From: Eledone cirrhosa
Taxonomy: Eukaryota
Direction of reading: 5' to 3'
Assembly (NCBI GenBank): GCA_964016885.1
Contig: OZ024745.1
Location: 127,348,001-127,412,000 of the forward strand
Length of the DNA stretch: 64,000 bases
In this document: piece after piece, positions 19,045 through 59,208 of the stretch
How the letters are laid out: each line of letters begins with the position of its first letter
Numbering within the stretch: position 1 is the first letter of the stretch
Made by a program: the position numbers and the translations under genes
Notes under the pieces: model-generated
Told to the model about the DNA's origin: nothing
Seen by the model: the letters and a program-made list of their open reading frames with translations, nothing else
Database searches by the model: none

Positions 19045-19105
19045 TTTTATTATATATATTTCAAGGGCGACCAAGCCAATCTTGGTGCGCTTTCATCAGA
19101 TAAAA
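19045..19105 (-). ncRNA. type-I hammerhead ribozyme (minimal stem III)
   Basis: TTTTAT CTGATGA AAGCGCACCAAG attgg CTTGGTCGCCCTT GAAA T ATAT ATA^ ATAAAA. Stems I, II and III pair, and the core is intact. Confidence 0.8.
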
Positions 19106-20249
19106 TACAAAATTTGTTTTATAAATAGTAACATAACCATGTAAAACAACCTTGACGGTTGAAAATTCGCTGGATAGTGAACATTTATTAAGGGTAATTC
19201 AAAGTTATGTGTGAATATGCAAATGAATGTCCGAAAAATTGAAAAAACAACCGTTTATTTAAATTACGCTGTGGGAAGAAGAGAGAGAAAAGTAAAATAT
19301 TAGTATATGTAGAAATAGAGTGAAGAAAGAGCGAAGAAAGAAGCTTATCCGAGGATGAGCTCATATAACGTAAATAAGTCTTATGTTTATGTTACATATT
19401 TATGTTACGTATATTTACTAATAATTGTTAGAATTCTGTTATAATAAATATTTATTTACTATTATAAGTATATAGAAAATTAGATATATAGAAAAAATAA
19501 ATATAAAGATGTATTAAAATATATTAAAAACTAGATTTAAAATAGAAAGTAGAATCATAGGATAAAATATAGATATAAGGATAGATATATGAGTGGATAG
19601 ATGGGTATATCATGTTATAGATGATAAATTATGAGGGATAGTAGTTTATATTTAGTGTAATTATTTAAATTAAATTAAATTAAATTAACTGAGTTAATAA
19701 GATTACTTATATGTTTTTAATGTTTTACATTGGAAACATATTGAAAATCTCAGTTTTGTTTATTTATTAGTTATTATGAGATAATTTTGACAAAGATATG
19801 TTTAAAGATATATTTAGCCTGAGTTAGTTATTGGTTATAACTCTAATATTAAATAATTAAAAAATTAAAATTATTAAAAGTATAAGAAAATATTAAAACC
19901 ATTAAAATATTAAGATTATAAAATATTAAAAATTCTAGACAAAATTCTTGAAAATTCCTGGAAAAACTTTCAAAGAGATTTTTAAAAGATCTCAAAAAAC
20001 CTCAGAAGATACTCAAAAACCTTTTAAAAAACATTTAAAAAAACATTTAAAAAGTGTTTAAAATTAATTAAAAACCTAAAATTATTCAGAAAATATAAAG
20101 AAATAATATTAAGAAATAATATTAAGAAATAATACATTTTAAACTATTTTCACTACTATTTTCATAATACATTTTCACTATCCAGCGAATTTTCAACCGT
20201 CAAGGTTGTATTCCATGCTTATGTCACTATTTATAAAACAAATTTTGTA

Positions 20250-20310
20250 TTTAATCTGATGAAAGCGCACCTAGGATGGCTTGGTCGCCCTTGAAATATA
20301 TATAATAAAA
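20250..20310 (+). ncRNA. type-I hammerhead ribozyme, inverted copy with a few substitutions
   Basis: TTTAAT CTGATGA AAGCGCACCTAG gatgg CTTGGTCGCCCTT GAAA TATATATA ATAAAA. Confidence 0.7.
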
Positions 20311-21837
20311 TAATTATGGTTTTATAAATATAGTTTCCATTTATTAATATATCGAATATTTACTCCAGTATTCCTTCTGAGTGCTCTATATCAGTTATAA
20401 ACTTTTAAATTTGTTGGAATCCCAACAAATTAAATATAACTTCTACATATATATATATATATATATATATATATATATATATATATATATATATAAGTAA
20501 AAGGAAAAGACAATGCTGACAAATTTTTAATAGTTTAATTAGGAATAAGTATAAATTAGTAATAAGTATTGGTTAGTATTCAGTTTTAGTTTTAAATTTT
20601 TACCGGTTGCGCATTTCTAATGCTTTTCAAAAATAATTTTGAGATAGAGCGCTCGTGATTTTTGCTCTAATATATATATATATATATATATATATATATA
20701 TATATATATAAATATAATATATATATATATATATATATATATATATATATATATATATATATATAAATACACACATGCATACATACATTCTTACATGCAC
20801 ACATACATATATAAATACATACATACTCATAGGCACACACATAAACACATACACAAATAGACTCACAGATATACGCTCACTCACGTAGAGACACATAAAG
20901 AATAAAAGATGCACAAACATACATACACACACACAATGAAACCATATATATATATATATGTACACATTCGTTGAAGCAGAGTATCATGACACATACACTA
21001 AGCATACACAATCGGTAACCAAGACATTTCCAATCGATCATACGCTCCACTATCGTATCAATCCTTTTCTAGTTATTCACGAGATCCCTTGGTAATGCCA
21101 CCATTTCTGAAACTGGTTTAGCGGCTTCAAGTAGATCTGCAGCTCCTTGTTGTAGTCATGGCTTTCTGATGGACGCTAGCAAAGACCGGAAGCTATAATT
21201 TATATAGAAGCTGTACGATTGCTCACACACACACACGCACACGCACACACACACACACACACACACACACACACACACACACACACACACACACACACAC
21301 ACACACACACACACGCACACGCACACACACACACACACACACACACACACACATATACTACCTTCATATAGAAGAGCACACACACACATATATATATGTA
21401 TATATGTAGTAGACATGTATATACACATATGTAGTATGTATCTCTCTATACATGTAAGTATATGCAGTATAAATATACATGTATATATATATGTATATAT
21501 ATATATATATATATATATATATATATATATATATATATATATATGTATATATCTGTGTGTATGAGTGTGTGTAGACATACAAGATTATTGTCTGGAACGT
21601 TGTGGGCCGTCCAAGGTTTTATGCTTGAATTTTCATGTCAGCATATTGGAAATTACATGAATGCATATTTCTGCAAGTATATGCATGTATGTATGTATGT
21701 ATGTATGTATGTATGTATGTATGTATGTATGTATGTATGTATGTATGTACGTATGTATGTATGTATGTATGTATGTATGTATGTATGTATGTATGTATGT
21801 ATGTATGTATGTATGTATGTATGTATGTATGAGGATA

Positions 21838-22120
21838 AGTCAACATCATTGGATACCATCAGGGTTGCAGGTGTTATATCAGAGTTTTCCTTCTCCTAGA
21901 ATTCTGCCTTGACAAAGGCTAAGGGGTCATCTCTCCCGGTGATTTTGGTACCATGGGCCCAGCACTATGTGTCAGTAATTGTCACAAGTGTAGTGTTTGT
22001 ACCAGAGTTTTCAAGTCGCTGGTTGGACTAAAAAGTCACACTCGTTCAGCGCATCTGTAGGGGTTCTCCTACATGGATATAAAGTAGTGGCCGTACTCGA
22101 AAACGAGTTGGCAGCCACCA
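21838..22120 (+). mobile_element. RTE-derived non-autonomous element, 5'-inverted copy with 13-bp TSD
   Basis: 21838-21948 is the reverse complement of 29505-29616, and the remainder is co-oriented with 24995-25148. The direct repeat ATGTATGAGGATA occurs at 21825-21837 and 22120-22132. Confidence 0.8.
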
Positions 22121-56509: not shown

Positions 56510-56866
56510 GTTTCTTTATTAGCCAGAGGGGCACAAAAGAAGGGGACAAATACAAAGGGGAAAGTTTACATACAATAAAAACGTGTAAAATATCACAAAT
56601 GCAATTTAAAAATTAGTCGATTTTCCCCAATAGGGGGAGACATACATATGGGTAACACATATCCCCGAAAAAATGTGCAACCCTCATCTCCAGGAGTACG
56701 AAGAGTTTGTACCCCTTTCCCCTCGTAGGGAAATACGTAGAGATGCCGCAGCCTGAGCGCGTGTTTGCGCATCGTCAGCCACGGCAACCCCAGCCCTCCG
56801 TTGGAGGGTGTTGGCAGCAGATGGATCTTCTCACCAAAGGAGCCCGCCTCTTCCAAAGGAATTGGA
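56510..56866 (-). mobile_element. Tx1/L1-like LINE fragment (internally deleted) within (GA)n/(GATA)n
   Basis: KIHLLPTPSNGGLGLPWLTMRKHALRLRHL (post-RT GGLGLP motif) and a 3' end ttgtccccttcttttgtgcccctctggctaataaagaaa. Confidence 0.65.
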
Positions 56867-57341
56867 AGATAGATAGAGACGCTGAGATCGATAGATAGAT
56901 AGAGAGAGAGGCAGAGATCGATAGATAGATAGATAGAGAGAGAGAGGCAGAGATCGATAGATAGATAGGGATAGAGACGCTGAGATAGAGAGAGAAGCAG
57001 AGTGTTATAGAGATAGAGAGATAGATAGATAGAGAGAGAGAGGCAGAGATAGAGGGAGAAGAAGAGAGATAGAGATAGTGAGATAAATACATATATATAT
57101 ATATATATATATAGGGAGATATATATAGAGAGAGTGCGAAAGAGAGAAGAGATATATAGAGAGAGATAGAGAGGTTAAAAGAGAGAGAGGGAGAGGGAGA
57201 GAGATAGAGATAGAGAGGTTGAAAGAGAGAGAGGGAGAGAGAGAGGGAGAGAGAGAGGGAGAGAGAGAGTGAGAGAGGTTGAAAGAGCGAGAGAGCGAGA
57301 GGGAGAGAGAGAGTGTGTGTGTGAGAGAGATATAGAGATAG

Positions 57342-57450
57342 ATTTCTTTATTTGCCACAAGGGCGCACAAGAAAAGGGGACAATACAAGGACTCATGCCG
57401 GGGATTTTACATACAAATCGTGTAAAAAAATATTTTCAACAAACAAATTT
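57342..57450 (-). mobile_element. 3' end of the same Tx1/L1-like family within (GA)n
   Basis: Reverse complement of ttgtccccttttcttgtgcgcccttgtggcaaataaagaaa. Confidence 0.6.
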
Positions 57451-58032
57451 ATAGTTACATATACAGAGTGAGAGAAATATAGGGAGAGAGGAAGAGAGAG
57501 GAAGAGAGAGGAAGAGAGAGGAAGAGAGAGGAAGAGAGAGGAAGAGAGAGGAAGAGAGAGGAAGAGAGAGGAAGAGAGAGATATAGAGATAGGGTGTCTG
57601 AGATAGTGATAGTAAGAGAGAAAGAGAGAGAGAGAGAGAGAGAGAGAGAGTGAGAGAGATAGTGAGATAGTGATAGCGAGAGAGAGAAAGAGAGAGAGAG
57701 AGAGAGATAGATAGAGAGAGAAAGAGTGTGAGAGAGATAGTGAGATAGTAATAGCGAGATAGAGAGAGAAAGAGAGAGAGAGATAGAGAGTGTGAGAGAG
57801 ATAGTGAGATAGTGATAGCGTGAGAGAGAGAGAGAGAAAATAGAGAGAGAGAGAGAGAGAGAGAGAGAGTGTGAGAGAGATAGTGAGATAGTGATAGCGC
57901 GCGAGAGAGAAAGAGAGAGATAGATAGATAGAGAGAGAGAGTGTGAGAGAGATAGTGAGATAGATAGATAGAGAGAGAGAGGCTGAGAGAGAGAGAGAGG
58001 AGCGAGAGAGAGCGAGATAGTGATATATATAT

Positions 58033-59208
58033 ATTAAATTCAAATATTAACAAAATAGATGTTCTTGTGATCAATTAAATGTTATTATACATATTTCAGA
58101 GGTACTTGAATCAAGTTCAACAGTACGTCCTCATCAGATAAAATAAAATGATACATGACATACCCTGACATGTGAGATGGTTAAGATTTAATCAAGGTAG
58201 TGATTAACTTATGAGAAAACTCAACTTATGAGAAAACCCTACTAATGAGAACATGCGAAAACGTAATAGAATCAATAGAGAGGGTGTGAGTAAGAAAAAC
58301 ATTGCTTTAATGTAACAGTTATAGAGTTTTTAAAGTTTGAAATACTACTGTAGGACTATAGAGGAAGACTATAGATATCTGGAGTTATAATTTTTTTTAG
58401 TTTTAAGTTTAGAATGCAACTGATAGATAATTAAAGAGAGGGAGAGATAAAGGGGAGTAATTTATGCACAAATTTTTTTCAGACATATAAACTGCCTTGG
58501 CAGTTAAATTTCAAAATATTTAATTTATGTTATTTTAGGGTAACGAATCAAAATTTTAGGTTTTAAAAGTTGATGGTTATTTGTATTGTAAATTTTATAA
58601 ATGTGTTAAATTTCTAAAATTCAAAGTTTTATGAAAACAAATTTAAAGGATTTACTAGGCTCGCGAAAGAAAAATATATACTGTTCAATATTCACGCAAA
58701 GGTAATCTTTAACAATATTACTTGTAACAGTGTCAACATTTTCCATATGTATAGTTTATGAAGTATTTACAGTTATAATTATCAAGGAATTTATTGTTAA
58801 ATAGTTATAGTGTCTAACAATTAAACCAGAGTTTTCAGCTGTAAATATATATGTGTGCATTGATCGTAATAAGAGGACTATAAATTATTATTTTTTATTA
58901 TTTGTTCATATATTATATTATATCACTACATTAGTTCAGCCTTCTAGGGAAGAACCGAACTCTAATTATGATTATGTTAATATACAATATAAATATATTT
59001 GCACAAGCTATATATATAGTTATACCGAACTAAAATTATGATTATGTTATTATACATTATAAACATATTTGCACCAACTACATATAGAGAGATATACTAA
59101 GTATTAATGAGACGGTATACATTTAGTAAAGGATAACGATTATAATCTTAGATAATAGATTCATACATTCCTTAGTCAAAATACAGCGATAGCTTACATT
59201 TCTAATAA
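58033..59208 (-). mobile_element. AT-rich non-coding Penelope-like insert with a hammerhead
   Basis: Flanked by (TA)n, with a hammerhead at 58082-58142 and an end shared with the 30669-30868 arm. Confidence 0.5.
58082..58142 (-). ncRNA. type-I hammerhead ribozyme
   Basis: TTAT CTGATGA GGA c GTAC tg TTGAA cttga TTCAA GTAC c TCT GAAA T ATGT ATA^ ATAA. Confidence 0.72.

Follow-up and report, generated by a model that had tools for sequence, protein, structure and literature searches.

Four hammerhead ribozymes in a stretch of the Eledone cirrhosa genome (contig OZ024745.1, positions 127,348,001 to 127,412,000; this 64,000-nt stretch is called the window, and positions are numbered within it) are 3′-repeat hammerheads of one branch of the Hydra-clade Penelope-like retroelements (PLEs). 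Each carries a C·C or C·U mismatch at the fourth pair of stem II. The initial annotation had read these mismatches from the sequence, and all four were found where it placed them, three of them on the minus strand. Because one clade carries the mismatch and other Hydra hammerheads pair the position, sequence comparison indicates that the mismatch is a derived feature with one origin, probably kept by selection.

The hammerheads and their insertions are as follows. RT-EN ORF stands for a reverse transcriptase-endonuclease open reading frame, and P0001 is a protein described below.

18993..20445, no strand assigned: inverted double insertion of a Penelope-like 3′ end, with arms 18993-19190 and 20165-20362
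19043..19107, minus strand: type I hammerhead; C10.4 (19089) opposite C11.4 (19066), predicted cut after 19051
20252..20312, plus strand: inverted partner hammerhead in the same insertion; C·C at 20266/20289, pattern match at 20256(+)
41721..41985, minus strand: 5′-truncated 3′ end of a Hydra PLE family with (TA)n at its end; 79-85% identity with copies carrying an RT-EN ORF (L292, L295)
41819..41873, minus strand: type I hammerhead; C·C at 41858/41839
46867..47212, no strand assigned: 346-bp palindrome (98%) made of two 5′-truncated PLE ends, junction near 47040
46910..46980, minus strand: inverted partner hammerhead of the next; C·U, pattern match at 46972(-)
47099..47169, plus strand: type I hammerhead of the young family of P0001; C·U at 47117/47146
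58023..59165, minus strand: 5′-truncated 3′ untranslated region (UTR) of a Hydra PLE family with (TA)n at its end; about 75% identity with ORF-linked copies (L071, L302, L308)
58082..58141, minus strand: type I hammerhead; C·C at 58127/58102

In the 18993..20445 insertion, the arms are 198 bp long and 93% identical, the right arm has a tail of about 80 nt, and (TA)n lies on both sides. The 46867..47212 palindrome has (TA)n on its right, and its tail runs on leftward of 46867. Family ORFs were found for the motifs at 41819, 47100 and 58082; the 19045 family was assigned by similarity of the hammerhead and its flanks, and its ORF was not located. Beside the palindrome at 47040 there is a perfect 218-nt inverted repeat with a 35-nt spacer (46223-46693).

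All four motifs have CUGANGA, three stem II pairs (in the 58082 motif, pair 1 is a G·U wobble), C·C or, in the 47100 motif, C·U, a resumed helix, GAAA and an AUA triplet. Stem III is U-NNNN-A, a single pair closing the loops AUAU, AUAU, GCGC and AUGU in the motifs at 19045, 41819, 47100 and 58082, respectively. The AUA triplet and the minimal stem III with a 4-nt loop, both described by the initial annotation, are thus present in every case. The type I core is complete (C3-A9, G12-A14, A15.1-U16.1 and H17), with three helices and stem I open. The core pattern had six matches in the window and none in each of 100 shuffles, the extra two being the inverted partners. As single copies, the four motifs gave folding-energy z scores of -1.20, -2.53, -0.65 and -0.16 against shuffles, three of them no better than shuffled sequence; the structural claim is therefore based on covariation and not on energy. 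The Rfam hammerhead models gave no match at the gathering score in six loci, no match at E≤10 over 41780-41920, and none among the matches listed (150 of 270) in another Rfam scan. A broken copy of the 58082 family at 3040-3096(-) keeps the core and the 5′ side of stem II, with its 3′ half replaced near a C-run.

Within the carrier element, 44-60 nt separate the hammerhead from the (TA)n run that follows it; the hammerhead often occurs as an inverted pair, one arm of which bears a tail. A longer copy has the order hammerhead, 5′ UTR, 775-aa frame, 3′ UTR, hammerhead and (TA)n, with the ORF starting about 210 nt past the cut site. The 3′ UTR is 0.8-2.1 kb here versus about 0.1-0.5 kb in metagenome relatives. 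The Hydra clade is defined by RWK and DKT motifs, a CxCX5C linker, and CxxC and CxH around E and N (Craig et al. 2021, PMC8557442; here and below, the comparison covers parts of each cited source). P0001, the 775-aa protein, has RW, DKT, YRDD, CxCX5C and CxxC/CxH motifs in the forms RRLRWI (with the K of RWK replaced), SDKTNN, CNCRIKNKC, CNLCLNE and NRRTDLFSICLH. It aligned end to end with 16 homologs and, by eye, resembled the published Hydra rows; it had no Pfam match. The single ORF encodes a reverse transcriptase followed by a C-terminal GIY-YIG-type endonuclease, insertion is into (TA)n, and tandem and inverted 5′-truncated copies with a tail are found, all as in Hydra-clade PLEs. The closest named proteins were from Argonauta hians (three named). 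The P0001 family is young: its endonuclease had 150 matches at 98-100% identity, and several of these lie in open frames of more than 800 aa.

Pattern counts were taken over the 3.0-Gb genome, with the reversed pattern as a control. With pair 4 unconstrained, the core pattern had 119,583 matches (821 for the control). C·Y at pair 4 accounted for 108,266 (control 64), of which 82,975 were C·C and the remaining ~25,300 C·U, as against 575 for C-G (control 41). Among the first 100 C-G matches listed, those with a long stem were scattered mutants of known C·C families, occurring singly or as inverted pairs, and the rest were short-stem motifs with other flanks, one satellite and chance matches. 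A base other than C at the 5′ position gave 7,357 matches (control 636); those listed were mostly C-to-T copies, starts at an inner CTGANGA, or chance. A looser search allowing any H17 yielded 4,170 matches with C·A (control 463), including amplified families. The mismatch had been described as C·Y; C·C and C·U do dominate, but the C·A families extend the rule to C opposite not-G.

The fetched loci came mostly from one contig (C1) and were drawn from the first 100 matches listed per search. Among 172 fetched copies (of 229 motifs), chosen without regard to pair 4 and passed through a structure filter blind to it, 164 were C·Y (110 C·C and 54 C·U); there were also two C·A, one C-G and five non-C. 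C-to-U was the commonest change at the pair-4 C in decayed copies. A second hammerhead population, with an AC..GU stem III, had 44,364 matches (control 6,169; ~38,000 above control), and hammerhead-like motifs in the genome total roughly 150,000. In viral contigs the pattern had 121 reported matches; 80 were checked, and none of these folded like the motif. Contigs from two runs, of unlabelled kind and independence, had variants elsewhere in stem II and none listed at pair 4.

All 13 ORF-linked copies with C·C, C·U or C·A fell into one clade of the reverse transcriptase and endonuclease tree (SH-aLRT 99.3), within which the proteins of the main lineages are 50-60% identical. Protein trees were built from homologs found in this analysis; this one used a fast search on 40 rows, with all but two fragments under 200 aligned residues dropped and the outgroup thinned to 11. 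Related families in this genome whose pair 4 is C-G or A-U lay outside the mismatch clade. The four motifs had been presented as sequence-divergent. Since carriers of the mismatch form one clade and relatives with a paired position lie outside, the four are relatives by descent that share one inherited state and do not count as independent witnesses. One family that fell inside the clade on 133 aa was rejected as a member, as its full ORFs place it outside. Another Hydra family, also outside the C·H clade, has a hammerhead-like motif (L372:2884-3000) whose core is CCGAUGA (C4) or CUGAUGA; its stem II contains an insert of about 95 nt, and its pair 3 is C·A.

Metagenome sequences served as an outgroup: 52 of 79 loci of Hydra relatives had a hammerhead after the ORF, giving 44 distinct motifs. 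Pair 4 was canonical in 41 of the 44, most commonly C-G (17), and C·Y in none; pair 1 was U·U in 28. Comparison with the published Penelope hammerhead alignment gave the same picture, with no C·C, C·U or C·A at pair 4 in the 26 Hydra rows of File S2 (PMC8557442). The suggestion of a distinct subtype with a conserved mismatch is thus supported.

Constraint was analyzed on 19 family representatives, at least eight of them single copies, with a tree from short flanks. Pairs 2, 3, 6 and 7 each showed three or more canonical types across the families. The first stem II pair, in symmetric register, was G·U in six, U·U in four, G-C in four, A-U in three and other in two. The initial annotation spoke of complete stem turnover. 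Covariation holds, but the stems are homologous, with R at pair 5 in all 19 families, and R at pair 2 and Y at pair 6 in 18 each. The 5′ base of pair 4 was C in 18 of 19 families; the lone exception came from the non-C search, and its family-mates have C. Its partner was C in 14 families, A in three and U in two, having changed five times, never to G. Zero family-level changes were counted at the 5′ C versus 2-7 (mean 4.8) at paired 5′ positions, for which the chance is 0.008 at the mean rate. This asymmetry points to constraint on the identity of the C and not merely on a gap in the helix. Because the tree is from short flanks and at least eight representatives are single copies, this evidence for selection is moderate.

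In a further 75 copies, divergence was 0.4% in the core, 1.3% at pair 4, 2.3% in stem II and 3.6% in the flanks; the set was mostly picked by protein search, so that these values mix subfamily differences with decay and do not speak for the function of single copies. A register shift that would bulge a 5′ base, following Cervera's consensus, was rejected by inspection, since it fails in most families. The functional contact proposed for the mismatch is plausible in view of the unchanged C, but the RNA partner was not found: the stem I flanks held no Watson-Crick partner for the C, and neither a G nor any other base was invariant within 16 nt on either side.

Our tentative explanation, to which we give somewhat less than even credence, is that a fixed unpaired C was inherited from one ancestor and likely kept to make self-cleavage slow and dependent on the element's RT-endonuclease. 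Stem III, an 8-nt palindrome that is perfect in 11 of the 16 family representatives, would let two hammerheads act as a dimer, which fits the dimer model for PLE hammerheads (PMC4209133). The mismatch would then leave the core-adjacent 3-bp helix marginal and basal cleavage low. Its predicted cost to stem II is ~5 kcal/mol, and the predicted probability of pair 3 is 0.30 in native sequences, 0.81 with C-G, and 0.85 as the outgroup median. Low cleavage would be useful if the copied RNA was uncut or re-ligated at the cut site, as suggested by insertions that keep sequence 3′ of that site. Finally, as the identity of the C is fixed, something would read it, most likely the element's protein, which would then aid folding of the core when cleavage is needed. 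There is a precedent in an anole PLE: its hammerhead requires the element's protein for cleavage, and insertion uses uncut RNA as substrate (PMC11167929). In a narrower form, possible and less probable than the explanation as a whole, the unpaired C would be a handle by which the RT-endonuclease gates the choice between uncut insertion template and cut unit-length message.

Several points weigh against this explanation. Recognition by the protein would be a notion borrowed from a Poseidon-clade element. Sister families, the population with an AC..GU stem III, amplify without the mismatch, and a U·U first pair already weakens the 28 outgroup motifs that have it. The native mean in the folding test is lowered by some representatives that are single, possibly decayed copies. 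The tree behind the change counts was built on short flanks, and with the slowest paired position (two changes) as yardstick, the chance of zero changes rises to 0.14. Moreover, repairing C·C takes a transversion, which is rare.

The conserved C could instead form a tertiary contact within the RNA, or a kink, through which the long stem II docks on stem I or on a dimer partner, so speeding cleavage without protein. Contacts between stems I and II do raise the activity of natural hammerheads (PMC3088659), stem II is longer here (median 31 versus 18 nt in the outgroup), and a fixed C with a free partner is what such a contact would leave. We nevertheless regard this as unlikely, given that no base within 16 nt of either stem I strand is fixed (only 9 of 16 families have U at position 1.7) and that C·A families share nearly the same stem I with sister C·C or C·U families. 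It is less likely still that the mismatch is a plain brake, for which any weakening of the core-proximal helix would serve and the C would go unread. The predicted destabilization, the freedom of the partner to be C, U or A and the related family with C·A at pair 3 instead would all suit a brake. It leaves unexplained why the 5′ C had no family-level change when its partner had five; C-to-U being the commonest change in decayed copies also speaks against it.

A frozen accident would account for the single origin: an ancestral C-G, the commonest outgroup state (17 of 44), would have become C·C once, been tolerated in a long stem and never been repaired, because repair needs the rare transversion. 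The statistics against it are weak if slow positions set the rate. A neutral unpaired base, however, should drift no more slowly than paired ones, the C·A families are one transition from repair and yet unrepaired, and the proteins have meanwhile diverged to 50%; we consider an accident improbable. Lastly, the constraint might act on DNA, where C·C, C·U and C·A become G·G, G·A and G·T in a cDNA hairpin used at insertion. In DNA hairpins, mismatches between two purines can be stable. On the RNA strand the hammerhead core is intact, and the non-Watson-Crick pairs elsewhere in the stem (nine G·U versus two A·C in 133 cells) are as expected if that strand folds, which leaves this a very slight probability. 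The slow, protein-gated ribozyme is favored over these four because of the predicted weakness of pair 3, the retained 3′ sequence, the anole precedent and the lack of a stem I partner.

Hydra PLE hammerheads are already known, and the conserved pair-4 mismatch is apparently new within the literature covered. Those of Craig et al. (PMC8557442) share with ours the host clade, the 3′-repeat position, the (TA)n target, a frequent U·U or G-Y first pair and a palindromic stem III; theirs is AC..GU and 9-10 nt long, whereas ours is an 8-nt AU..AU palindrome. The octopus element Hydra-1_oBim carries a different hammerhead (PMC8557442). The minimal PLE hammerheads of Cervera and De la Peña (2014, PMC4209133) are likewise of type I with a long helix II and an unstable palindromic helix III, with predicted dimers and inverted pairs 100-700 bp apart; their activity in vitro is low. 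In their consensus, a conserved G10.1-C11.1 is preceded by an unpaired base and helix II is paired; our motifs have the very short palindromic stem III and lack both the unpaired base and the conserved G10.1-C11.1. Isolated helix II mismatches occur in single rows of their Fig. S3, including C·A at the fourth pair in one sea-urchin row (PMC4209133).

The anole Poseidon element PAc (Frangieh et al. 2024, PMC11167929) resembles ours in insertions that end with a tail 3′ of the cut site and in AT-rich targets. It differs in clade, in an ORF that starts inside stem II, and in that no stem II mismatch is reported in the part of the paper covered. The type I hammerheads of axolotl retrozymes (Cervera and De la Peña 2020, PMC7229834) are similarly abundant (126,247 motifs) and also have a family-defining helix II mismatch, but it is U·U at the base (pair 1) and not at pair 4; they lie in tandem non-autonomous repeats and have canonical loop 1-loop 2 contacts. 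No prior description of a conserved pair-4 mismatch was found in the hammerhead and PLE literature covered, namely parts of PMC4209133, PMC11167929, PMC8557442, PMC3088659, PMC7229834, PMC6765202, PMC6962438 and bioRxiv 10.64898/2026.07.22.740005, with figures, bioRxiv supplements and Lünse et al. 2017 outside that coverage.

The window also holds other repeats. At 35304-36945, four 310-bp tandem units (99% identical) and one inverted unit each have a short hammerhead, at 35504, 35814, 36124, 36434 (-) and 36776 (+), with a U·U first pair, C-G at pair 4, a CGCG stem III and a GUA triplet. This array looks like a retrozyme-type repeat, and the unit forms further tandem arrays elsewhere in the genome. 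A repeat at 2351-2848 ending in (TA)n, which adjoins a Pif1-helicase fragment at 1311-2350(-), contains a hammerhead at 2649-2735(+) whose stem II is 55 nt long and paired at position 4, and whose stem III has four pairs. A fragmented reverse-transcriptase retrotransposon at 25514-29139(-), putatively of R2/R4 type, has by eye a C-terminal restriction-enzyme-like domain.

The hammerhead count puts this genome beside that of the axolotl among the most hammerhead-rich reported in the literature covered. The one reconstituted PLE hammerhead needs the help of its protein, and here evolution singles out one base as a candidate. The natural C·C, C·U and C·A versions and the paired sister families are ready controls, and an experimental test is practical because one family is very young. 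If the explanation is true, the gated variant would mark a radiation of more than 100,000 ribozyme copies missed by Rfam models.

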